Shown here in pieces: positions 2,667-42,908 of a stretch of DNA of 53,284 bases. The position numbers and the translations under genes are program-made. The stretch comes from an uncultured Gammaproteobacteria bacterium (GTDB lineage: Bacteria > Patescibacteriota > Microgenomatia > Daviesbacterales > UBA10151). The notes beneath the pieces were generated by a model. That model saw only the letters and a list, made by a program, of their open reading frames with translations, made no database searches and was not told the DNA's origin. The stretch is from positions 1-53,284 of the forward strand of contig CAYICZ010000003.1 in assembly GCA_964362195.1 (NCBI GenBank), read 5' to 3'. Numbering within the stretch: position 1 is the first letter of the stretch; each line of letters begins with the position of its first letter.

Positions 2667-4805
2667 TTAATGCTCAACACGGCCGGTGAAGCCTGAAGAT
2701 TCAACTATTTTGGCAGTAATTTGGGCCGGCACCGGTTCATAATGATCTGCTTCCATGTAATAAGTGGCTCTGCCCTGAGACATAGATCTTATGGCTGTGG
2801 CATAGCCATGCATTTCAGCTAAAGGCACAAAGGCTAAAACAACTCTGGCTTTATTAACTGTTTCAGATGAAACAATCTGGGCTCTTTTGGAAGATAAATC
2901 TCCAATAATTTCTCCTAAAAACTCCTCCGGGGTGGTTACTTCCACCTTCATAATAGGCTCAAGCAGAATCATGGCAGCGCCCTTGGCTGCCTCAGATAGA
3001 CCCAAAGATGCAGCAATTTTAAAAGCTATTTCAGATGAGTCAACATCATGGAAAGACCCATCATAAACTGTAACTTTAATATCAGTGACCGGGTATCCTG
3101 CTAAAATTCCAGTGTCTTCTTTCTCAATAACACCTTTTTCAATTGGAGAAATAAACTCCCTGGGAATTGCTCCACCAACCACTGCTGATTCAAATTCCCT
3201 GCCTTGTCCTCTTGGTAGAGGTTCAATTCTAAGCAAGCAGTGCCCATATTGTCCCCTGCCTCCTGTTTGTCTAATATATTTACCCTCACCTTTTGCTTCT
3301 TTGGTAATGGTCTCTTTGTAAGCTACCTGTGGTTGACCAACATTTGCTTCAACCTTAAACTCACGTTTCATCCTATCAACCAAAATCTCAAGCTGCAACT
3401 CTCCCATTCCGGCAATAATTGTCTGCTCTGTTTCCGGATCTGACTTAACTCTAAAAGTGGGGTCTTCCTCAGCCAGTCTTTGCAAGGCATAACCCAGCTT
3501 TTCCTGATCTGATTTGGTTTTTGGCTCAATTGCCAAAGATATAACCGGCTCCGGAAAGGAAATAGATTCCAAAATTATGGGTGAGGTCTCATCACACAAA
3601 GTATTTCCGGTGATTGTATCTTTAAGCCCAACTGCTGCCACAATCTCTCCTGCATATGCTTCCTCAATTTCTTCCCGGTCATTGGCATGCATTAAAAGCA
3701 GTCTGCCAACCCGTTCTTTAATCTGCTTAGTAGCATTATAAATATAACTGCCGGATTTTAGAGTTCCTGAATAAATTCTGATAAAGGTTAATTTTCCAAC
3801 ATGAGGATCAACCTGAATTTTAAAAGCCAAAGCACCCAAGGGTGCAGAGGCTTCTGCTAATCTAGTTTCCTCTTCATTAGTTGTTGGATTAATCCCGGTA
3901 AACTCCGGAATATCCTGTGGGGAGGGTAAATATTCCACCACACAGTCAAGCATTGGCTGGACACCTTTATTTCGCAAACTGGATCCTGCCAAGACCGGAA
4001 CGATCTTATTGGCTATAACAGCTTTTCTAAGAGCAGCTTTTAACTCTTCAACTGAGATTTCCACACCTTCCAGATATTTCTCCATCAAAATATCATCTGA
4101 TCCGGCAATCTCTTCTACCAATTTTTCCCGGTATTTTTCTACATCCGAGACCATGTCCGATGGTATATCAATCTGATGGAATTTTGCTCCTGTATCATCA
4201 CCTTCCCAGATATAGGCTGTTTTGGTCAGTAGATCTACCACTCCTTTAAAGTCATTTTCTTTGCCTATTGGCAAATTGTAAGCCAGCGCATTTGCACCCA
4301 GTCTATCTCTGGCAGATTGGATTGTGCCATGAAAATCAGCTCCCACCACATCCATTTTGTTGGAAAAAGCAATTAAGGGAACTTTATATTTATTTGCCTG
4401 TCTCCAGACTGTCTCTGTTTGGGATTGCACTCCTGATGACGAATCCAAAACAATCACTCCGCCATCCAATACCCTAAGGGATCTTTCCACCTCAGCTGTA
4501 AAATCAACGTGCCCCGGGGTATCAATTAAATTAATTCTGGTTTCTATATCTTTAAAAGGTCCGCTCTTTGGAATCCAAAAAGTAGTAATGGCAGCTGAGA
4601 CAATGGTAATACCTCGCTCACGTTCCTGCTCCATCCAGTCTGTGGTGGTTGTTCCCTCATCAATATCACCTATCTTGTAGGTTTTACCTGTGTAAAAAAG
4701 GATCCTCTCTGTAGTGGTGGTTTTACCGGCATCAATATGGGCAATAATACCGATGTTTCTGATTCTATCAAGAGGAAAATCACGCTTGGTTTTTAAATCA
4801 GCCAT
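2667..4805 (-). CDS. fusA: Elongation factor G
   Basis: [38 protein letters not shown]; 712 aa. Confidence 0.99.
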
Positions 4806-5029
4806 TACTTGCCTGCCTCCAAGCCTTTAATTATCTTTTTAACTTCCTCAATCCTGACTCTGGTTGTCACAGCATCCTCAATAGCCATGGTATAAGCTGC
4901 ATTTTCAGATAAATCTCCTTCTTGGGCAGCAACACCTTTTTTAAGATAAATAGCTTCCAGATCTTTTTCCAGCTGAACCAAATTATCCTTCCACATCTTC
5001 AGTTTTTCCTGTCTTAATTTATTGTCCAT
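4805..5029 (-). CDS. Stand-alone GreA/GreB N-terminal coiled-coil protein (74 aa)
   Basis: [13 protein letters not shown] matches the Gre acidic tip, flanked by two amphipathic helices. No C-terminal globular domain. TAATG overlap with fusA. Confidence 0.75.
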
Positions 5030-5052
5030 ATTTATATATTACTGGAATTACT

Positions 5053-5529
5053 TTACCATCTGAAGTGGGCAAAGGCACGGTTAGCATTAGCCACTTTTTG
5101 CATATCTTCTTTTTTCTTAATTGCTGATCCTGCGTTATTAGCTGCATCCATTATCTCAGCTGCCAGTTTTTTACCAAATCCATGAAAAGTGGAATTTGAT
5201 CTTGATTTTGCTCCGGCAATTAACCACCTGATGGCCAAAGCTTCTTTTCTATCTCCTCTAACTTCAACCGGCACCTGATATGAAGCTCCACCAACTCTTC
5301 TTGGCCTAACTTCCATTTTTGGAGCCACATTAGTAATAGCTGTTTCAAAAACTGCAAGCGGATCTTGTTTTGTAGAAGCCTTGATTTCATCCAGCGCTTT
5401 ATAAACCACTGCCTGTGAGGTAGATTTTTTACCATCATGCATGACTTTATTAATAAAACGGGATAGCAATCTTGATCCATAAATTGGATCCAGCGGCAAT
5501 ATTCGATTTGGGGCTTTTTTGCTTCTCAT
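5053..5529 (-). CDS. rpsG: 30S ribosomal protein S7
   Basis: DPIYGS, GKKS, EVRPRRVGGASYQVPVEV, ANRAFAHFRW. Confidence 0.99.
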   Translation of the reverse strand: MRSKKAPNRILPLDPIYGSRLLSRFINKVMHDGKKSTSQAVVYKALDEIKASTKQDPLAVFETAITNVAPKMEVRPRRVGGASYQVPVEVRGDRKEALAIRWLIAGAKSRSNSTFHGFGKKLAAEIMDAANNAGSAIKKKEDMQKVANANRAFAHFRW

Positions 5530-5535
5530 ATATTT

Positions 5536-6006
5536 TTAAGCTGGCAGAGCTGATTCCACTGGAGCTGCAACTGGAGCAGCTTTGGCAATTGGTCCTCCTC
5601 CACCTGATTTTGTGCCATAGATTGATCTGGCTTGTTTTCTACCCTGCACTCCTGCTAAATCATATTTTCCTCTGACTAAATGATACTTAACTCCTGGTAA
5701 ATCCTTTACCCTTCCACCTCTAACTAACACAATTCCATGCTCAGCTAGCGAGTGTCCTTCGCCCTGAATATAGGCTGTAACTTCAGCTCTGTTGGAAAGT
5801 CTTACTCTGGCCACTTTACGCAAGGCTGAATTAGGTTTTTTTGGAGTCATTGTTTTAACCAGAATCACCACTCCCCGCTTTTGCGGATTATATTCCTGGG
5901 TGTATTTCCTGTCTTTAGCATTAAAGCTACGTCTTAGAGCAGTTGCTTTGATCTTTTTAACAATTACTTTTCTGCCATGTCTTACTAATTGATTAATGGT
6001 TGGCAT
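5536..6006 (-). CDS. rpsL: 30S ribosomal protein S12 with an Ala/Pro-rich C-terminal extension
   Basis: [39 protein letters not shown]. Confidence 0.99.
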
Positions 6007-6008
6007 AT

Positions 6009-9000
6009 TTAACCTTCTATTCTTGCTCTTTCCTCAGAAGTGGGAATCAGCCTGCCAATTATAACATTTTCTTTAAGCCCGATTAATTTATCTGATTTTC
6101 CCTGGATTGCAGCATCAGATAATATGGATGTAGTTTCCTGGAATGAAGCAGCTGACAGGAAGCTTTCTGTTTGAAGCGAAGCTCTGGTTATACCTAATAT
6201 GACCACCTCTGCTGTTGATGGCTCACCACCACCTGCTAAAACTCTTTTATTTTCATCTTCAAATCTTAACTGATCTACAATTTCACCCGGCAAAAGGTTG
6301 GTATCACCTTGAGATTCAATTCTTACCTTATCAGACATTTTTCTGACAATAACTTCAAAGTGTTTTTCATTAATAGGCACACCTTGTGATTCATAAACCC
6401 CTCTTACCTCATCAACAATATATCTTTGTGCAGCTTTTAGCCCCTGAATTCTAAGGATTTCTTTAACATCCATATGACCTGAGGCTAAAATAGATCCGGC
6501 ATCAATTAACTGTCCTTCCTCAACCAAAAGAGTTGAAGTTGCCGGAATAATATATTCTCTTTCTTCATGTGGCTTAGAAGTGGTTCTAACTCTGACTCTA
6601 ACTCCAAGTCCGCCTTCCACAATTGAAACCTTACCGGCAATTTCTGAAATAGGAGAAACTATTTTTGGCGTTCTGGCCTCGTATAACTCCTCCACCCTTG
6701 GCAAACCTTGAGTAATATCAAGTCCCACAATACCTCCGGTATGGAATGTTCTCATAGTTAGCTGAGTTCCAGGCTCACCAATAGCTTGTGCTGCCACCAC
6801 TCCAACAGGAGTTCCAATGCCAACTAATTCTCTTGTTGTTAAATCATAACCATAACAAAGTTTACAAATTCCATATTTTGCGCCGCAAGTTAGGGGAGAC
6901 CTTGCTATGACAATTTGTACTCCATTCTTTAGAATCTCCTGAATATTTTCTTCTATCATAATAATTCCAGCTTTAACTATTACTTTTCTAGTTTTTGGAT
7001 CTTTAATATCTTCCAAAACAACTCTTCCCAATAATTTTTCTCTGGCATTGTTAAAATTACTTTTTGAAATATCATAATCCAACCCTTTGGTAGTATGACA
7101 ATCATCCATTCTAATAATGACATCATGAGCTACATCAACCAATCTTCTGGTTAAATATCCGGCATCAGCAGTTTTCAAAGCTTTATCAGCCACACCTTTT
7201 CTAGCACCCCTAGCTGAGGTAAAGTATTCAAAAACAGACAAACCCTGTCTATAATTGGATTTGGTAGGTAACTCCACAATTTTTCCTGTTGGATCAGTTG
7301 ATAATCCTCTCATGGCTGAGAGTTGCTTTGCCTGATCTCTTGAACCACGAGCTCCTGCTTCTACCATCATTCTTATTGGATTCTCGGTTCCCAAAAAGTC
7401 CCAGGTAGCACTGGCTAAATCTTCGGTTATCTTAATCCAAACCATTTGACCAAGCTGAGATTTTTCTTGTGGAGTAATTAAACCTTTAGCTACGTTGGCT
7501 TCAATTTTCTCAATTTCTCTCTCTGCTTCATCTAGATATTTTTGCTTATCAGGCACCACTTTAGCATCAAAAAGAGAAATAGAAATGCCGGCAATTGTGG
7601 CGCCCCAAAAACCTATTCCTTTAATGTTATCTATAACATCAGATACAGCATCCCTGTCTAGAGTTTCCATGGCTTTAAGAATAATATCTCTGATAGTAAA
7701 TCCTTTAACAGCCTGATTCATAAATCTCATGTGAGGGGGCAGCACTTCATTAAACATGATTCTACCAACAGATGTTTCCAAATCTGCTTTTTCAATTCTA
7801 ACTTTAACTTTTTCCTGCAACTTAACCTTACCTAAACTGTAAGCTCTAATAGCATCTTCTTTTGAAGTAAAAAACTTCAACTTTCCATCTTTTGGCTCAT
7901 ACATTAAAGTGATGTAATAACAACCTAACGCCATTTCCCTGTTTGGCACAGTAATAGGTTGGGCATTAGCAGGTCCAAAGATATTTTCTTTAGCCATCAT
8001 TAAGGTTTTTGCTTCTTCCTGGGCTTTAGTTGAAAGAGGCACATGGACAGCCATTTGATCTCCGTCAAAATCAGCATTAAATCCTGCACAAACACAAGGA
8101 TGAACCTGAATTGCATTACCATCAACCAGCTTTGGGAAGAAAGCTTGAATACCCAGTCTATGAAGAGTTGGTGCACGGTTTATTAAAATCGGGTGGTCTT
8201 CGATAATCTCTTCTAAAATATCCCAAACCTCAGAGGGACGGGTTTCCAGAACATTCTTTGCCCCTTTAACATTTGAAGATAAACCGCGAGATATCATCTC
8301 CCGCAGGACAAACGGCTTAAACATTTCCAAAGCCATTTCTTTTGGTAATCCCACCTGATTTAACCTTAATTTTGGACCAACTACAATAACCGATCTTCCT
8401 GAATAATCAACCCTTTTACCTAGTAAGTTTTGCCTGAATCTTCCCTGTTTTCCGCGCAGCATGTCTGAGAGTGATCTTAAAATATGGGTTGTGACTGGCC
8501 CGCCACGTCTGGATGATCTGGAAGACGCATCAATCAGCGAATCAACAGCCTCCTGAAGCATTCTTTTTTCATTTCTTAAAATAATCTCAGGAGCACCAAG
8601 GTTAATAAGTCTGTTTAATCTATTATTTCTATTTATTACTCTTCTGTATAAATCATTTAAATCAGATGTAGCAAATCTTCCCCCGGGAAGTTGAACCATA
8701 GGACGAAGATCAGGAGGAAGTACCGGCAATACTCTTAAAATTAACCATTCTGATAAAATCCCTGCTCCTCTCATACCCTCAACGATTCTCAGTCTTTTGG
8801 TTGCTTTAATATGTTTTTGGCCTGTTGATTTTCTAACCTCATCCCGCAAATTTGCAGATAATTTATCTAAATCTATCTTTTGTAATACTTCCAAAAGAGC
8901 CTCTGCCCCCATACCAACTGTGGCAAATTCAGATACACCATATTCTGACAGCTTGTAATATTCTTCCTCGGATAAAAGTTTTAAGGGCATAACAGATTTA

Positions 9001-9698
9001 ACCAAATCAGAAACAGCTTTAAATATTCCTTCAATTTGACCGATTTCAACCATCAGATTATCTCTTAGCTTTTGAATTTCATGTCTATTTTTAAGTTCCA
9101 ACTCTTGTGATTCCAGCTCAAATTTCTCTTTTTCCACTTTTTTCTTAAGCTCTAAAACTTGCTTTTTAAGTAAGCTTTCTAAATCTTCAACATTTTTATC
9201 AAGAGCTTTTTTTGACTCCTCTATTTTTGCTGCCAAATCTTTTTCTAGCTTTTCCAAAGCAGCAGTTTTACCATCAGGATCAATCGAAGTAACCAGGTAT
9301 GAGGCAAAATAAACAACTGCTTCCAAATTCTTAGGAGATATATCCAAGATTAAGGATAATTTGCTTGGAGCGCCTTTAACAAACCAGGAATGTGCAACAG
9401 GGGAGGCTAAGCTAATATGACCCATTCTCTCACGTCTTACTTTAGATTGGGTAACTTCCACTCCACACTTATCACAAATTACACCGCGGTAGCGAATTCT
9501 TTTGTATTTTCCGCAATAACATTCATAATCTTTTGTGGGACCAAAAATATTCTCTGAGAAAAGCCCGTCTTTTTCAGCTTTTAGCGTTCTATAATTTATA
9601 GTTTCAGGCTTGGTAACTTCACCAAAGCTCCATGATCTAATCGCATCAGGAGATGCAACTGTTAACCTTAAACTTTCAAAATCCAACAGATCATTCAT
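6009..9698 (-). CDS. rpoC: RNA polymerase beta' subunit
   Basis: [12 protein letters not shown] catalytic motif, CYCGKYK...CDKC zinc site, [13 protein letters not shown]. Start placed at ATG 9698, just after the rpoB stop, rather than 9728. Confidence 0.99.
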
Positions 9699-9705
9699 AT
9701 TTTTA

Positions 9706-12700
9706 TTATGCAGCCTCCTTCTCGTCAACTATTTCAAACGGACTCTTTTCTGCTTTGATCTCTTCATCAGTAGCGGTTTCTGTCATACCAAGTGCCTGTT
9801 CCAGTTGGGCAACCTTCTGTATCATTTCCGGCTTTTCTTCTACCTCTGGAGCAGCCACGATTTTAGCACCCAATGTTTCAACTTGCAGACCCAGAGCTTG
9901 CAGTTCTTTAACCAAAACCTTGAAAGATTCCGGAATCAAAGCTTGTGGAATCTCAATACCTTTAACTATTGCCTCAAAAGCTTTAGCCCTTCCCACCACA
10001 TCATCGGATTTTATTGTCAACATCTCCTGCAAAATATGAGCTGCGCCATATGCCTCAAGCGCCCAAACTTCCATCTCTCCCAATCTTTGTCCGCCCATTT
10101 GTGCTTTACCCCCAAGAGGTTGTTGCGTAACAAGTGAGTAGGGACCGGTTGATCTGGCGTGAATTTTTTCCTCAACCATATGAATCAGTTTTAGAATATA
10201 GTTTCTTCCAACCACTATTGTATTTTCAAAAGCTTCACCGGATCTTCCGTCAATCAGCTTTACCTTACCATCTACTGGTAATCCTGCCTTTTTAAGTTCA
10301 GAAATTAATAAATCCTCAGAAATTCTCTCAAAAACTGGCGCAGCAATATTATAACCTAGCTTTTTAGCGGCAAATCCCCAGTGAGTTTCTAAAAGCTGTC
10401 CCAAATTCATACGGGATAGTACTGACAAAGGAGATATAATAATATCTATCGGTGTGCCATCTTCCAAATGAGGCATATCTGCAACCGGTAAAATCCTTGA
10501 AATTACTCCTTTATTTCCATGTCTTCCAGCCAGCTTATCACCCTCAGTGACTTTTCTCATTTGGGCCACCTTGACCTTAATCCTCATCAAAGTCCCTGTA
10601 TCCAGCTCATCCCCATCTTCACGGGATAAAATCTGAATTCCAATAACTGTTCCCCGCTCACCATGTGGAATTCGAAGAGATGTATCACGAACTTCTTTGG
10701 CTTTTTCTCCAAAAATGGCTCTAAGTAATCTCTCCTCTGCAGTTAGCTCTGTTTCACCTTTTGGCTGAACTTTGCCAACCAAAATATCATTTGGTCCAAC
10801 TTCAGCTCCAATTCTGATAATTCCCTTATCATCTAAATTTGCCAGTGCATCCTCAGATACATTTGGAATATCCCGGGTTAGCTCCTCTGGTCCCAGTTTT
10901 GTTTCAACAACATCCACCTCGTATTCTTCAATATGAATTGAAGTCAGTAAGTCTTCTTTGACTAATTTATCTGAAATAACTATCGCATCCTCATAACCTA
11001 ATCCCTCAAAACTCATATAAGCAATTAAAAGATTTTGTCCCAGCGCTAACTCTCCATTTTCAGTAGCTGCTCCATCAATCAAAAGATCACCTTTTTTCAC
11101 TTTTGTTCCAACTGATACAGCTGGTTTTTGAGAATAACAGGTTCCCTGAGGTGAATGAACAAACTTCTTAATCTCATATTTTATTTCTTCTTTCTTACCC
11201 TTGAGGGTAAGTTTTTTACCATCAACTTGAGTTATTAGCCCATCTTCGCTTGCACGAACTATCCTGCCCATATTATCTGCCACAATCCTTTCCATCCCTG
11301 TTCCCACAATCGGGGCATGTGGAATAAGTAACGGTACTGCCTGACATTGCATTTGAGTTCCCATTAAAGCCCGATTTGCATCATCATTTGCTAAAAAAGG
11401 AATAAGTGAGGCTGAAATTCCAAAAATTTGCTGAGGTGAAATATCAATTAATCTTACCATCTTTGCTTCACCTTCATAAAAGTTTCCCTGATACCTTAGC
11501 GGTACTCTTTCATCTTCAATAAATCCTTTGTCAGACACATTCACTGTTGCCTCTGTAACATGATAATCCTCTTCGTCGTCTGCTGAAATATACATAATAT
11601 CATCAGAAATCTTTGGTTTGCCTTTTTCCAAAGATACTCTTCTATATGGAGTTTCTAAAAATCCATATTCGTTAATACGGGCATAAAGCGCCAGGTAAGT
11701 CACCAGTCCAATATTTTGTCCCTCAGGAGACCGGATCGGATCAATTCTTCCGTATTGTGAATGATTAATATCCCGGACAGAAAAGCTGGCACGATCTCTT
11801 GTTATACCGCCTGCCCCCATAACAGAAAGCCGCCTTAAATGATCCAACTCAGAAAGTGGATTAACCTGATCTAAAATTGATGAGAGTTGAGATGAGCGGA
11901 AAAATTCATTGATAGCTGCAATTACAGGTTTTGCATTAATTAATCCTCCTGGTGATACTTCCTGATCAGCAGTTGTTAAACTCATCCTTTCTTTAATAAT
12001 TCGCTCAAGTCTTAAAACTCCAATCCTGAAAGCATTTTGCTGAACTAACTCTCCGGCACATCTGACACGTCTATTTGCCAAATGATCAATATCATCTACT
12101 TTGCCTTCCCTGTTTGTAAGCTTAATAAGATACTTAAGAGTTGCAATAATATCTGTTTTTTTTAAGATCCAATTTTCTTCCGTATTTGATACATCCAAAC
12201 CTAGCTTTTTATTTATCTTAAATCTGCCTACCTTTGTTAGATTATAGCGTCTGCTATTAAAAAACATTCCTTCTAAAAGAGCTTTTGCATTTTCTAACAC
12301 AACAGGATCTCCTGGCCTCATTTTTCTAAATATTTCCAAAAGAGCCTCATCAGTATTAGTTGTCGGGTCTTTAGCTAACGTTAAGTCAATCAATTTTTCC
12401 TCACCAGAATCTACATCACTAAATTGTTCTCTAATTTCTTCATTTTCCGAAAATCCAATAGCCCGAAGTAAAGTTGTCACAGCAAATTTTCTTCTTCGAT
12501 CAATTTTGGCAGTTAAAACACCAGTCCTGGAAACTGAAAACTCAAGCCATGAACCTCTATATGGCCTAACTTCAGCAGAATATAATCTTTTTCCTGTTAT
12601 CGGATCATCTGCTGCAGAAAAAAAGACCCCTGGGGATCTTACTAATTGGTTAATAATAACCCTTTCAACTCCATTAACAATAAAAGTTCCTTTTTCTGTC

Positions 12701-13056
12701 ATTTGAGGAATATCCCCCAAGAAAACCTCCTGTGTGCTCCTGTTGCCAGTCTGTTTATTTGTTAAAATTGCTTCAATTTTTAAAGGGGCGTCATATGTGA
12801 CGCCTTTTTCTCTTGCTATCTCAGCTGTATATTTAGATTTGCCAAAATGAAACTGGCCCAGTTCCAGGAGCCAGTTTTTCTGAGTAAAGTCCTCAACAGG
12901 TGTAATTTCAGTGAGAACTTCTTTAATGCCCTCTAATAAAAACCATTTATAAGAATCAAGTTGGATTTGGATCAAATTAAGTTCAGGAACTTGAGATGGA
13001 GTCTTGCTCCAAAATTTTCGGTTTGTATTTTGTTGTAAATTAAGGTTCGCTGGCAT
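9706..13056 (-). CDS. rpoB: RNA polymerase beta subunit
   Basis: GDKLAGRHGNKGV, HARSTGPYSLVTQQPLGGKAQMGGQRLGEMEVWAL. Confidence 0.99.
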   Translation of the reverse strand: MPANLNLQQNTNRKFWSKTPSQVPELNLIQIQLDSYKWFLLEGIKEVLTEITPVEDFTQKNWLLELGQFHFGKSKYTAEIAREKGVTYDAPLKIEAILTNKQTGNRSTQEVFLGDIPQMTEKGTFIVNGVERVIINQLVRSPGVFFSAADDPITGKRLYSAEVRPYRGSWLEFSVSRTGVLTAKIDRRRKFAVTTLLRAIGFSENEEIREQFSDVDSGEEKLIDLTLAKDPTTNTDEALLEIFRKMRPGDPVVLENAKALLEGMFFNSRRYNLTKVGRFKINKKLGLDVSNTEENWILKKTDIIATLKYLIKLTNREGKVDDIDHLANRRVRCAGELVQQNAFRIGVLRLERIIKERMSLTTADQEVSPGGLINAKPVIAAINEFFRSSQLSSILDQVNPLSELDHLRRLSVMGAGGITRDRASFSVRDINHSQYGRIDPIRSPEGQNIGLVTYLALYARINEYGFLETPYRRVSLEKGKPKISDDIMYISADDEEDYHVTEATVNVSDKGFIEDERVPLRYQGNFYEGEAKMVRLIDISPQQIFGISASLIPFLANDDANRALMGTQMQCQAVPLLIPHAPIVGTGMERIVADNMGRIVRASEDGLITQVDGKKLTLKGKKEEIKYEIKKFVHSPQGTCYSQKPAVSVGTKVKKGDLLIDGAATENGELALGQNLLIAYMSFEGLGYEDAIVISDKLVKEDLLTSIHIEEYEVDVVETKLGPEELTRDIPNVSEDALANLDDKGIIRIGAEVGPNDILVGKVQPKGETELTAEERLLRAIFGEKAKEVRDTSLRIPHGERGTVIGIQILSREDGDELDTGTLMRIKVKVAQMRKVTEGDKLAGRHGNKGVISRILPVADMPHLEDGTPIDIIISPLSVLSRMNLGQLLETHWGFAAKKLGYNIAAPVFERISEDLLISELKKAGLPVDGKVKLIDGRSGEAFENTIVVGRNYILKLIHMVEEKIHARSTGPYSLVTQQPLGGKAQMGGQRLGEMEVWALEAYGAAHILQEMLTIKSDDVVGRAKAFEAIVKGIEIPQALIPESFKVLVKELQALGLQVETLGAKIVAAPEVEEKPEMIQKVAQLEQALGMTETATDEEIKAEKSPFEIVDEKEAA

Positions 13057-18236: not shown

Positions 18237-19961
18237 TCATGCAATCTGAGCGCGTATTCTTCTGATTCCTGAGGAAATTGCTTCTTCTTTGGTAATTTTA
18301 ATTTTGCCAATCACTCCGGTGTGTTCAACATGAGGACCGCCACAAAATTCTAGCGAGTAATAACCACCTCTATCAGGCCCTATACCATAAAGACTAACCT
18401 TGTCTGCATATTTTTCATTAAATAAACCAATCGCATTCATTCTTTTTGCCTCATCTAGACTAACAATCATATGATCCACCTTTAAATCTTCTTGTATTTT
18501 TTTATTTATTATTTCCTCAGTTTTTTTAATTTCTTCATCAGTCATTTTTTCATCATAAGAAAAATCAAACCTTAATCGCTCACTCGTTATGTTTGAACCT
18601 TTTTGAAAAACGCTTGGCCCTAAAACATCCCGCAAAGCCTGGTGTAAAAGATGTGTGGCAGTGTGGTATTTAGTGACTACTTCACTGTGATCTGCCAATC
18701 CCCCTTTAAACATCCCTGCAGATTGTGTTCTTGAAAGTTCCCTGTGTTTTTCAAATTCTGCCCTAAATTGCTCACGATCCACCTGCTGACCTTTTTCTTT
18801 AAACAGTTCTTCAGTTAACTCTACAGGGAATCCATAAGTTTGGTATAAATCAAAGGCAATTTTTCCATCTATTTTTTCTATTTTCTCAACTTCTTTTAAA
18901 CCATGGTCCAGTGTTTTAGAAAACCGGTCAATTTCTTCTTTAATGACTTCTTTATTCACCTTAGTTAACTCTGATAATTTATCTAAATCACTTCCAAGCT
19001 GTTTCATTTTTACAGCCGAACGTCTGAGCAATCTTCTTAAGATATAACCTTGTAATTTATTTGAAGGCCTTACTCCATCAGCTATTAAAGCCACAGCTGC
19101 TCTCATGTGATCAGCAATAATTCTCATTTCATGAGAATTATCCGAATACTGATTGCCTGTAAATTCCTGAAGCAACTGAATTGTATTTTGGTAAATATCA
19201 ATCTTAAAAATATCCGGATTATTATTTGAGGCAGCTGTTAGTCTTTCTAACCCTCCCCCAAAATCTACATTTTTTTGGGAAAGTTCCTTTAATTTTCCAT
19301 CCTTTTTTTGATATTGGATAAAAACAGAATTGCCAATTTCTAAAAACCTGCCGCAATTACAGTTTGGGTGACAATCTTTGCCGTATTTTTCATCATGAGA
19401 AATACCAAAATCATAAAATACTTCACTATCTGGTCCGCCAATTTCTCCCTCCGGCATTTTATCTGGAGGGCCACTTCTTGACCACCAGTTTTTTTCTACA
19501 CCATAAAAATAAATATGGTCATCATTTAATCCCAAACTTTTATATATTTCATATGACTCGTTATCTTTTGGAACTGAATCATTTCCTTCAAAAACAGATA
19601 CATATAATTTTTCTTTTGGTAGTCCTAATTCTTTAGTTAAAAATTCCCAGAACCATTTTAACTGGTCTGCTTTAAAATAATCACCAAGTGACCAGTTTCC
19701 CAACATCTCAAAAAAAGTAGTATGTCTGTTATCTCCCACCTCTTCTATATCTTCTGCCCGGAAACAGGGTTGGGAATTAACCAGTCTTTTCCCTTCAGGG
19801 TGCTCTTGGCCTAAAAGATAGGGAACAAGCGGCTGCATGCCGGATGAGGTAAAAAGTGTAGTGGGGTCATTCTCCGGCACTAACTTTGCCGGCGCAATTT
19901 CTTTATGTCCTCTCTCCACAAAAAATTTAATAAATTTGTCTCTGATGGTTTTCGAATCCAT
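18237..19961 (-). CDS. alaS: Alanine-tRNA ligase, compact form without C-Ala
   Basis: TTLFTSSGMQP, RHTTFFEMLGNWSLGDYFK, DFGGGLER, HTATHLLHQAL and FCGGPH editing motifs. Confidence 0.97.
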   Translation of the reverse strand: MDSKTIRDKFIKFFVERGHKEIAPAKLVPENDPTTLFTSSGMQPLVPYLLGQEHPEGKRLVNSQPCFRAEDIEEVGDNRHTTFFEMLGNWSLGDYFKADQLKWFWEFLTKELGLPKEKLYVSVFEGNDSVPKDNESYEIYKSLGLNDDHIYFYGVEKNWWSRSGPPDKMPEGEIGGPDSEVFYDFGISHDEKYGKDCHPNCNCGRFLEIGNSVFIQYQKKDGKLKELSQKNVDFGGGLERLTAASNNNPDIFKIDIYQNTIQLLQEFTGNQYSDNSHEMRIIADHMRAAVALIADGVRPSNKLQGYILRRLLRRSAVKMKQLGSDLDKLSELTKVNKEVIKEEIDRFSKTLDHGLKEVEKIEKIDGKIAFDLYQTYGFPVELTEELFKEKGQQVDREQFRAEFEKHRELSRTQSAGMFKGGLADHSEVVTKYHTATHLLHQALRDVLGPSVFQKGSNITSERLRFDFSYDEKMTDEEIKKTEEIINKKIQEDLKVDHMIVSLDEAKRMNAIGLFNEKYADKVSLYGIGPDRGGYYSLEFCGGPHVEHTGVIGKIKITKEEAISSGIRRIRAQIA

Positions 19962-32720: not shown

Positions 32721-34172
32721 TCAGATCACTCTGAAGGATTCAACCACATCTCCAATTGCAAAATCAATTGGCGGATCAAAGATCATTCCGCAATCCGAAC
32801 CTTTTTCCACTTTATTAACTTCTTCTTTAACCTTTTTCAAAGATTTTAATTTAGTTTCTCCTATTAAAACTCCTTCTCTAACAACTCTTATTTTTTGCCC
32901 TTTGGCAATAACTCCTTCAATCATTCTGCAACCGGCAATCCGCTCCCCTTTCCCAAATGGAAATTCAGCAATAATACTCGCTTTTCCTAATATTTCCTCA
33001 AGTTGTCCTACTTCAAGCAATGTTTTAACAACTTCTTCAATCTCATCCAAAAGCTCATATATAATATTGTAGGTTCTGACTAAAACATGTTCATTCTCTG
33101 CCATTTTGGCAGCAGTTGGAGCAACTTTAACATTAAAACCAACCACAATTGCCCCAACAGACAGCGCATGTTGCACATTATCTTCGGTTATATCCCCTGT
33201 TCCGGAAGCTATAAAATCAACCACCTCTCCATCAATGTTAAACTTTTCTAAAGAAGCTTGGATTGCTTCAAGTGAACCTTGCTTATCAGCCTTAATAATT
33301 ACTTTAAGGGTTTTTGAAGTTCCTTGTTTTAATTTATCTACCAAAGAGCGAACAACTTCTTTCTTCTCAGAAAGTTCTGCTTCATTACCTAATACTGCTC
33401 CCACTGCTGGGACTTCTTCTAAACCCAAAACCTCAACAGGAGTTGAAGGACCTGCCTGATCAAGCGGCTTATTATTCCAGTCAAAAATCCCTCTGATCTT
33501 TCCCTTAACTCCACCCACTATTATTTGATCACCTTTTTTCAAAGTCCCGTTTCTTACTAAAATTGTGGCAATCGGGCCTTTAAATTTATCTAGCGTTGCC
33601 TCAATCACCACACCTGATGAAGCTAAATCAGGGTTTCCTTTTAGCTCATGAATTTCAGCAACCAAAAGAATCATCTCTAAAAGTTTATCTACACCTTCAC
33701 CTGTTTTTGCAGAAAGGGCAACCATAGGTACATCTCCTCCGTATTCTTCAACCATAATTTTTTTATCAGACAACTGTTTTTTGATTTTTTCCAAGGATAC
33801 TTTTATATCAATTCCAGGAAGGTCTATTTTGTTAACAGCCACAATTAAAGGAACTTTTGCTCCCTGAATATGATTTATTGCCTCAGTTGTTTGCGGCATA
33901 ATCCCATCATCAACTGCCACCACCAAAACAGCAATATCAGCAACCTTAGCTCCCCTGGATCTCATTTTCTCAAAAGCTGCATGACCTGGAGTATCTATAA
34001 AGGTAATTTGCTTGCCACCATGCTCTACCTGATATGCACCAATATGCTGGGTTATTCCGCCGTGCTCTTTTGTGGCAACTGAGGATTTGCGGATAAAATC
34101 AAGTAAAGTAGTCTTACCATGATCAACATGGCCTAAAATTGTAATTATTGGTGCCCGTGTTTCTTCTGCCAT
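32721..34172 (-). CDS. infB: Translation initiation factor IF-2, short form lacking the N-domain
   Basis: [42 protein letters not shown]. Confidence 0.97.
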   Translation of the reverse strand: MAEETRAPIITILGHVDHGKTTLLDFIRKSSVATKEHGGITQHIGAYQVEHGGKQITFIDTPGHAAFEKMRSRGAKVADIAVLVVAVDDGIMPQTTEAINHIQGAKVPLIVAVNKIDLPGIDIKVSLEKIKKQLSDKKIMVEEYGGDVPMVALSAKTGEGVDKLLEMILLVAEIHELKGNPDLASSGVVIEATLDKFKGPIATILVRNGTLKKGDQIIVGGVKGKIRGIFDWNNKPLDQAGPSTPVEVLGLEEVPAVGAVLGNEAELSEKKEVVRSLVDKLKQGTSKTLKVIIKADKQGSLEAIQASLEKFNIDGEVVDFIASGTGDITEDNVQHALSVGAIVVGFNVKVAPTAAKMAENEHVLVRTYNIIYELLDEIEEVVKTLLEVGQLEEILGKASIIAEFPFGKGERIAGCRMIEGVIAKGQKIRVVREGVLIGETKLKSLKKVKEEVNKVEKGSDCGMIFDPPIDFAIGDVVESFRVI

Positions 34173-42377: not shown

Positions 42378-42908
42378 TTAATCAAGACGGTAAGTCCATC
42401 CTGGTTGCCAGTTCCACGGAGTAGAAATAATTTCTTCTAAAGAAAGTTCCTTAACCCAATGTTCCAGTCCATATTGGGTAGCCCTGTGTCCAATAATCAT
42501 TACTTTTTTACCTTGATAATTTTTCTTTAAATCGTCCAAAAAACTTTTCATTCTTTGAGAAGTTTGCTCATAACTTTCTCCGTTTGGAAAAGGAGTCGAG
42601 ATATGTTTTATTTTTAGTGGATCAACTTCGGAAGACGGATATTTGGTTAAATCTCCATAATCACATTCTCTTAATCTTTTATCTTTAATAATAGAAAATC
42701 TTTCCCCAAAAGCAATTTCTGCGCTTTTATATGATCTTTGCAAATCAGAACAAAAAATTGCATCAAAATTTTGATCTTTATATCTTTCGCCTAACTCTTT
42801 GGCCTGCATTTTGCCAAGTTCTGATAATGCCACATCGTTATGCCCGGATGCCAAATAAGCTTCATTATCTAAACTTGTGGAATGTGCTTCAAAAATTATA
42901 GTTACCAT
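42378..42908 (-). CDS. Histidine phosphatase (phosphoglycerate-mutase-like) family protein
   Basis: IFEAHSTS (variant of RHG), CSDLQRS, LRECDYG, GES, IGH. Confidence 0.85.
   Translation of the reverse strand: MVTIIFEAHSTSLDNEAYLASGHNDVALSELGKMQAKELGERYKDQNFDAIFCSDLQRSYKSAEIAFGERFSIIKDKRLRECDYGDLTKYPSSEVDPLKIKHISTPFPNGESYEQTSQRMKSFLDDLKKNYQGKKVMIIGHRATQYGLEHWVKELSLEEIISTPWNWQPGWTYRLD

Follow-up and report, generated by a model that had tools for sequence, protein, structure and literature searches.

To our knowledge, every characterised bacterial factor that works through RNA polymerase's secondary channel (GreA, GreB, Gfh1, DksA, Rnk and TraR) pairs the element that enters the channel with a globular anchor, and in vitro work on Escherichia coli GreA assigns binding largely to the globular part. 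TraR, a plasmid-encoded short relative of DksA with about 73 residues, acts in the secondary channel; DksA and TraR alike retain a globular region with a zinc finger, and neither is a Gre homologue. Within the Gre family the N-terminal domain provides the activity and the C-terminal domain docks on RNA polymerase (PMC4598747), the N-terminal domain (NTD) carrying the nucleolytic and anti-arrest activities and the C-terminal domain (CTD) contacting the beta' coiled-coil (PMC3132773). An E. coli GreA-NTD construct with a stop after codon 75 is described in PMC7527559 (Koulich et al. 1997/1998 as cited there and in PMC3132773). Here we describe a natural protein of the same extent, encoded directly upstream of fusA in the window, by which we mean the whole 53,284-nt stretch of contig CAYICZ010000003.1 (assembly GCA_964362195.1) that was analysed. 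We give the name mini-Gre to this 74-aa protein, which homology identifies as a lineage-specific, single-domain member of the Gre family. The gene and its two signature motifs lie as follows:

4805..5029, minus strand: mini-Gre coding sequence, ATG start, 74 aa, TAA stop, encoding a Gre N-terminal coiled-coil hairpin only (from the open reading frame (ORF) list, Pfam, hhalign, the AlphaFold2 (AF2) model, the fold match and the ratio of nonsynonymous to synonymous rates (dN/dS))
4892..4918, minus strand: codons of the hairpin tip, G38-D-L-S-E-N-A-A-Y46 (from conservation and the E. coli GreA register)
4991..5005, minus strand: codons K9-L-K-M-W13, at the hairpin's open end, the hallmark of the family (from homologue alignments)

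The original prediction had placed a 74-aa ORF between rpsG and fusA, its stop overlapping the fusA start in TAATG, and the sequence bears this out in all respects, the minus strand being the only thing omitted. The public gene call on the contig starts instead at Met12 and yields 63 aa (P0017). Because residues 1–11 are conserved at the protein level in ∼110 of 121 homologues, the 74-aa start is preferred over the one at Met12.

Membership in the Gre family is supported at several levels of comparison. Pfam PF03449 (GreA_GreB_N), for which the gathering threshold is 24.5 bits, matches mini-Gre at 31.2 bits (E 2.5e-7), the match spanning residues 5–68 and model positions 3–67 of 71 (65 positions). 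Matches to the NCBIfam greA models are confined to the N-terminal ∼70 positions of those models and score 19–35 bits against cut-offs of 139–180; mini-Gre stays below the full-family cut-offs of the TIGR01462 type, and the Gre C-terminal domain PF01272 is unmatched. When a profile of the mini-Gre family was aligned by hhalign with a profile of 15 full-length GreAs, the two were related with 98.9 per cent probability (E 3e-17), and since residues 8–71 of mini-Gre pair with residues 7–71 of GreA, the short protein ends at the boundary between the N- and C-terminal domains. Profile alignment to the Protein Data Bank (PDB) sets mini-Gre 27–64 on E. coli GreA 29–66 (PDB 1grj), and D39 and E42 therefore correspond to the catalytic pair D41 and E44. 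On these alignments the similarity of mini-Gre to the Gre N-domain is beyond chance. The claim that the ORF encodes a Gre-type helical hairpin with an intact acidic tip thereby stood, as did the suggestion that an HMM search would find the N-domain and no C-domain. Fainter signals came from a PDB sequence search with the single protein, which returned no Gre chain, and from a search of the PDB with the family profile, which reached GreA/Gfh1, GreA and GreB at marginal E-values only. Model scans of mini-Gre turned up no dedicated Pfam or NCBIfam model for its family.

The predicted structure agrees with the sequence comparison. The AF2 model is a two-helix hairpin with helices at residues 3–36 and 44–71 (pLDDT 86.7), and its best fold match in the PDB is E. 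coli GreA itself (1grj; rmsd 1.3 Å over 60 columns), with a GreA/Gfh1 chimera on RNA polymerase, GreB, Gfh1 and DksA (1tjl) also among the matches. As modelled, mini-Gre is an antiparallel two-helix hairpin equivalent to E. coli GreA residues ∼3–76. It shares with GreA and GreB (PF03449 plus PF01272) a homologous N-terminal coiled-coil of equal length, an identical tip and the acidic pair in register; it differs from them in that the whole globular C-terminal domain, with which they dock on the beta' rim helices, is missing from it and not encoded nearby either, and in that it carries a family-specific K-x-x-M-W motif in helix 1. It corresponds to the same protein segment as the E. coli GreA-NTD, which is credited with nucleolytic and anti-arrest activity; that fragment is artificial, whereas the gene for mini-Gre occurs in nature and is kept by purifying selection throughout a lineage. 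TraR offers a precedent for a protein of ∼70 residues acting through the secondary channel, and DksA appears among the fold matches, but mini-Gre is a bare hairpin with zero cysteines in its 74 residues, so a C4 (or C-x) zinc finger is absent, and no Pfam DksA/TraR model matches it at E up to 10.

The gene is conserved well beyond the window. A first homology search with mini-Gre returned 356 proteins; the best 120 of these are all 63–91 aa long, and the named ones among them all belong to Candidatus Daviesbacteria or to the 'Patescibacteria group' (Microgenomates group, candidate phyla radiation (CPR)). The tip GDLSENAAY (residues 38–46) is invariant in the 121 aligned homologues except for one S41K, and the acidic pair Asp39/Glu42, whose conservation the original prediction had singled out for checking, is invariant in all of them. 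Residues from K30 to 46 are essentially invariant, as are many positions in both helices. Across the wider mini-Gre family K9 of the motif K-L-K-M-W is invariant and W13, whose counterpart in full-length GreAs is a Leu in the core of helix 1, is nearly so. When each species was represented by a single genome, scanning turned up a 72–84-aa orthologue in 52 genomes (L005–L056), and with metagenome contigs included there are ∼57 related loci (Daviesbacteria, CPR) in which such an orthologue stands directly before fusA. Codon comparisons across relatives gave a median proportion of nonsynonymous differences (pN) of 0.20 and a median proportion of synonymous differences (pS) of 0.78, which is saturated, and the 135 unsaturated pairs gave a dN/dS of ∼0.17. 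By these measures mini-Gre is a real, old gene under strong purifying selection. It also forms what is, by profile search, a small and distinct family: an exhaustive search of 1.84 billion cluster representatives returned only 43 matches, of which ∼30 are short proteins (≤130 aa; clusters at 50 per cent identity) and the rest are full-length GreAs, none of them with an E-value better than 4e-6. A rough tree of N-domains built by neighbour joining likewise places all mini forms in one group, separate from the full-length GreAs.

It might be supposed from a length half that of GreA and a Pfam match to the N-domain only that the gene is a recent truncation, a full-length greA decayed to a pseudogene, or an artefact of annotation. 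This we regard as practically dismissed. The ∼57 loci, their synonymous sites saturated, agree in the length and end point of the gene, a result opposite to the recent truncation that the original prediction had named as its refuter; the ∼30 clusters of short proteins point the same way, and the conservation data refute the pseudogene reading. No relative carries a full-length greA at the site upstream of fusA, nor is a C-domain remnant found there in any relative, and a full-length gene at the same site was rejected as a candidate.

In about 25 of the loci (L005, L006, L009, L010, L014 and ∼20 more; roughly half of L005–L056) the source genomes are titled 'uncultured Gammaproteobacteria bacterium' and come from 'binchicken' third-party annotation (TPA) assemblies. 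These metagenome-assembled genomes carry a Daviesbacteria-type rpoBC-str region and mini-Gre at 70–86 per cent identity, and the label 'uncultured Gammaproteobacteria' on them is evidently wrong.

A separately encoded docking domain was sought around the gene. An HMM built from 24 Gre C-domains found no match in the six-frame translation of the whole 53-kb window and none in the six-frame flanks of 61 related loci, tblastn for the Gre C-domain over the window and the 61 loci gave noise only, and 40 of the larger ORFs in the window, when scanned with Pfam, proved to be ordinary housekeeping genes with no GreA_GreB C-domain. The statement that no Gre C-domain is encoded next to the gene was therefore correct and extends to the window and the 61 flanks. 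A split gene or a nearby docking partner was rejected on these empty searches. Because what lies between rpsG and mini-Gre is cargo that varies from locus to locus, no neighbour but fusA qualifies as a conserved docking partner.

Taken with its invariant tip, the domain content of mini-Gre points to a single-domain transcript-cleavage factor of the secondary channel that works without a docking domain, a reading to which we assign a probability of roughly 60 per cent. RNA polymerase is probably still the target, because the mini-Gre loop is identical to the loop that reaches the active site in bona fide GreAs. The hairpin would enter the secondary channel, present D39 and E42 to the active site and there, like GreA, stimulate the endonucleolytic cleavage of backtracked transcripts. 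What affinity was lost along with the docking domain could be offset by the abundance of mini-Gre: because translation of fusA is coupled to that of mini-Gre, the latter should be made at least as often as elongation factor G (EF-G), and EF-G is one of the most abundant proteins, so the coupled mini-Gre would be abundant as well. A second possible offset lies in the conserved residues of the open end (K9, M12, W13, N16, R57-V-R-I, K64 and I66-I67), which would sit at the channel rim.

Several points weigh against a cleavage factor of this kind. E. coli GreA is reported to need both NTD and CTD for specific binding to RNA polymerase (PMC7527559), a globular domain is present in every bacterial secondary-channel factor described (PMC4598747), and Mycobacterium tuberculosis Rv3788 keeps the acidic tip residues yet has no cleavage activity (PMC3132773). 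W13 falls in the a/d core register and may only stabilise the free hairpin rather than dock on polymerase. The Foldseek E-values of the fold matches are not significant, as is expected because mini-Gre is a plain hairpin. Finally, the beta' rim-helix region of this organism aligns without gaps to solved beta' chains of ∼1,160–1,210 residues (e.g. 8x6f_D, 6wvj_D), and because it is free of indels no adaptation is visible on the polymerase side; polymerase adaptation was dropped as a line of evidence, since nothing can be inferred from a gap-free alignment.

The paralogues of mini-Gre bear on whether it cleaves at all. In two loci tandem mini genes precede fusA, first a GDLRENAA[FY] copy and then one with GDW[QH]ENAE[YF] (L087, 7790–8246, the altered-tip copy at 8001–8246; L088, 7754–8231). 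In a sister group (L057–L061) a 46–51 per cent identical mini-Gre lies away from fusA, and in three of its members a paralogue with a tip degenerated to VGYLSEN-AY stands beside it (L059, 1835–2394; L060, 5926–6480, the altered-tip copy at 6256–6480; L061, 1797–2373). The tip is lost altogether in some family members (P0133, P0135, P0136 and P0140). By analogy, altered-tip paralogues beside a canonical copy resemble a specialisation of the GreA/Gfh1 type. Thermus Gfh1 and Rv3788 are themselves Gre-fold factors with acidic tips found beside a canonical Gre, a division of labour that the altered-tip mini paralogues echo; both are two-domain proteins, whereas the mini-Gre of the window lacks the C-domain and has a canonical tip.

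It is conceivable on these precedents that mini-Gre occupies the channel without cleavage, either as a minimal inhibitor of the Gfh1 or Rv3788 kind or as a competitor modulating a full-length GreA encoded elsewhere. Gfh1 and Rv3788 have kept their acidic tips, yet they inhibit instead of cleaving, and they displace Gre factors (PMC4598747, PMC3132773), and GreA is near-universal in CPR, where the family is present in 2,035 genomes (Meheust et al. 2019), so a full-length copy may well exist. A remote hairpin and a full-length GreA do share one contig in Collierbacteria (L089). There a 70-aa hairpin (8001–8213) with a cysteine-flanked tip, EACGxxCDWHDNNAY, and no Pfam match is encoded 7 kb from the full-length GreA gene (1036–1482), and it may represent another mini family of the secondary-channel type alongside GreA. 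We nevertheless hold a non-cleaving role for mini-Gre to be unlikely, given that its tip, GDLSENAAY, is the canonical cleavage motif, the very one carried by full-length CPR GreAs, and that divergent tips belong to the second paralogues, in which a regulatory role is easier to see. Weak evidence in the same direction is that no search brought up a full-length GreA assignable to Daviesbacteria; in the one search directed at it, the best 120 of 609 matches to the closest full-length GreAs include none, the named hits among those 120 being all Shapirobacteria or unassigned Patescibacteria.

Those closest full-length GreAs by N-domain, among the matches listed, are 149-aa proteins of Shapirobacteria, another Microgenomates lineage, and have in common with mini-Gre an R/K-G-x-A-A stretch before the tip. 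Their genes (L085, L086) stand in unrelated neighbourhoods, as do the other full-length CPR greA genes (L062–L084), such that full-length greA occupies scattered positions whereas mini-Gre lies directly before fusA.

This position is the most constant feature of the gene's surroundings, mini-Gre being directly upstream of fusA in all of L001–L056 and in the window. The elements of the junction in the window are:

4803..4807, minus strand: TAATG, the overlap of the mini-Gre stop and the fusA start (from sequence)
4816..4820, minus strand: GGAGG, Shine-Dalgarno-like, for fusA, 10 nt ahead of the fusA ATG and within the mini-Gre codons L70-E71-A72
2667..4805, minus strand: fusA (EF-G, 712 aa), the downstream coupled cistron (from the ORF, with EF-G Pfam domains on the orthologues in L001–L004)

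The TAA of mini-Gre and the ATG of fusA have one base in common (TAATG, 4807–4803). Among the 59 loci listed, the gap between the two genes is −8 to +5 nt in 44, most commonly a 1-nt overlap or a 1-nt gap, and 31–141 nt in most of the remainder; of 42 tightly coupled loci, 27 have a tetramer resembling a Shine-Dalgarno sequence 5–20 nt upstream of fusA. Judged by this spacing, mini-Gre is usually translationally coupled to fusA.

The TAATG overlap and the GGAGG within the last codons could also be taken to mean that mini-Gre is chiefly a leader cistron, whose translation, and not whose product, controls fusA through coupling and the embedded Shine-Dalgarno sequence, and the invariance of L70-E71 could partly reflect that sequence. 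We consider this very improbable: amino-acid conservation extends over all 74 residues at the dN/dS given above, about a quarter of the loci have a gap of 30–140 nt to fusA and still keep the protein, and there are copies of mini-Gre that do not adjoin fusA.

Upstream, the arrangement is far less constant. The remaining genes of the region in the window are:

5030..5052, minus strand: spacer between rpsG and mini-Gre, 23 nt, in which the promoter and leader hairpin of relatives are absent (from sequence)
5053..5529, minus strand: rpsG (ribosomal protein S7), the upstream neighbour (from the ORF, with the S7 Pfam domain at orthologous loci)
5536..6006, minus strand: rpsL (from the ORF)
6009..9728, minus strand: rpoC (beta' subunit; from the ORF)
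9706..13056, minus strand: rpoB (beta subunit; from the ORF)

Read along the minus strand, the order of the window's ORFs is rpoB, rpoC, rpsL, rpsG, the 23-nt spacer, mini-Gre and fusA. The interval from rpsG to mini-Gre ranges from these 23 nt up to 5.1 kb in relatives, where it holds histidine-phosphatase-like genes, a ∼148-aa gene without known function and toxin–antitoxin pairs as cargo. What is conserved is thus the linkage of mini-Gre to fusA, usually downstream of rpsG, and not the linkage of rpsG to mini-Gre. The original prediction had proposed an rpsG-X-fusA arrangement, of which the X-fusA half is kept in ∼57 loci and the rpsG-X half varies; it had further placed the gene in an rpoBC-str superoperon, which is too simple for the ∼80 per cent of relatives that have a promoter of their own and a leader hairpin before mini-Gre, the window belonging to the minority that lack them.

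Insertions between rpsG and mini-Gre form a hotspot, seen in L006, L017–L019, L025, L028–L031, L034, L042, L047, L052, L054 and L055. The recurrent cargo comprises a ∼175-aa histidine-phosphatase-like gene of the same family as one at 42378–42908 of the window, the ∼148-aa gene, which begins MTQVSKYPISK, and toxin–antitoxin-like pairs.

The promoter in relatives is of the sigma-70 type; 44 of 55 related loci have it, 67–115 nt upstream of the ATG of mini-Gre. Its −35 region, TTGACTTT, is invariant, its −10 element is TAnnAT (mostly TAATAT) at a distance of 17 ± 1 nt, and the spacer between them, TTTAGGATCAAA, is unusually conserved. The motif occurs once per 12–20-kb locus, with a second copy in L019 and L042 only. 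The promoter is followed by a GC-rich hairpin of 7–9 bp and a run of 5–8 U in 42 of 56 loci, the U-run ending 3–33 nt before the mini-Gre ATG. One locus may serve as an example (L022, 5931–6003): the promoter TTGACTTTT…TAATAT, which a generic promoter scan calls independently, is followed by a GC-rich hairpin and U-run directly before mini-Gre, and this hairpin, missed by a simple terminator scan, folds in ViennaRNA with a dG of −12.9 kcal/mol. When leaders were folded singly with ViennaRNA a hairpin formed in 16 of 16, with dG from −9.3 to −15.7 kcal/mol and z mostly about −2 to −3. The stem is usually CCUCCC/GGGAGG, and in several loci it has changed with pairing kept, to CCCCGC/GCGGGG (L013), CCUCGCC/GGCGGGG (L055) and GACCC/GGGUC (L087). 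RNAalifold gave no consensus structure on a MAFFT alignment of the leaders, which does not bring the hairpins into register, and among 10 loci no Rfam family matched the leader at gathering level, the matches obtained being at chance level (E ≥ 0.4). In the window the promoter motif has 0 matches and the leader hairpin is likewise absent from the 23-nt spacer; mini-Gre and fusA are therefore transcribed there from upstream.

The simplest reading of the element in relatives is a dedicated promoter and a putative leader terminator (attenuator) for the mini-Gre–fusA unit; as an alternative, the GGGAGG arm might be a sequestered Shine-Dalgarno sequence. An attenuator would have a parallel in the E. 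coli greA leader, at which two thirds of transcripts terminate (PMC2836576), yielding the GraL RNAs (PMC2836576, PMC6829880). As there, a strong promoter and then a leader hairpin resembling an intrinsic terminator precede a gre gene in ∼80 per cent of mini-Gre relatives; the two differ in that they have no sequence similarity, the mini-Gre unit carries fusA as well, and the element is missing from the window. A leader terminator in relatives could tie expression of the mini-Gre–fusA unit to the elongation and termination behaviour of RNA polymerase, as in the E. coli greA leader.

The same loose tie to the RNA polymerase genes, with a separate promoter and inserted genes in most relatives, can be read in another way, particularly as fusA is the sole invariant genomic partner and overlaps mini-Gre stop to start. 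Mini-Gre might be a coiled-coil that acts in translation or on EF-G, through assembly, chaperoning or binding to the ribosome or EF-G, RNA polymerase being no longer its target. We judge this improbable, as an invariant nine-residue loop that is the same as the Gre active-site loop would be hard to explain for another target, and the sister group L057–L061 keeps its mini-Gre genes apart from fusA.

A wider form of the cleavage-factor reading can be put forward tentatively, and we would sooner bet against it than for it. Daviesbacteria and close relatives would have replaced two-domain GreA with docking-free hairpins, comprising a cleavage-type copy and, in some genomes, Gfh1-like paralogues with altered tips; the canonical copy, expressed from a promoter and attenuator of its own, would be the cistron leading into fusA and would set transcript rescue together with EF-G supply. 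If such a replacement took place, the Gre C-domain would be dispensable in vivo and a 74-residue hairpin would be the minimal natural secondary-channel factor.

In the open-access literature on GreA in CPR, Patescibacteria, Microgenomates and Parcubacteria, searched also by Pfam identifiers, no published description of mini-Gre was found. What is new is a natural single-domain Gre factor with conserved genomic wiring of its own. A long-retained, natural Gre protein consisting of the N-domain only, with an invariant tip, raises the question of how a bare hairpin occupies the channel, and whether the Gre C-domain itself serves function or just affinity and regulation. Mini-Gre would give a minimal system for the structure and mechanism of factor-assisted RNA cleavage, and the hard-wired link with fusA may be a regulatory bridge from transcription quality control to translation capacity. 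The promoter and leader hairpin of relatives constitute a separate regulatory element that is directly testable.

Some minor observations concern the surroundings and the rest of the window. On the minus strand, 3' of fusA, are a 201-aa protein without assigned function (2024–2629), a Phd/YefM antitoxin (1668–1976) with a ParE toxin (1460–1711), and a PIN-domain protein (679–1191). In L001, L003 and L004 tuf and the S10 operon lie within ∼1.6 kb downstream of fusA, directly downstream in L003 and L004. Mini-Gre would be one more case of the extreme domain economy of CPR bacteria, and the same genome has further shortened proteins: on the minus strand, an IF-2 of only 483 aa that is missing the usual N-terminal region (32721–34172) and an alanyl-tRNA synthetase of only 574 aa (18237–19961).

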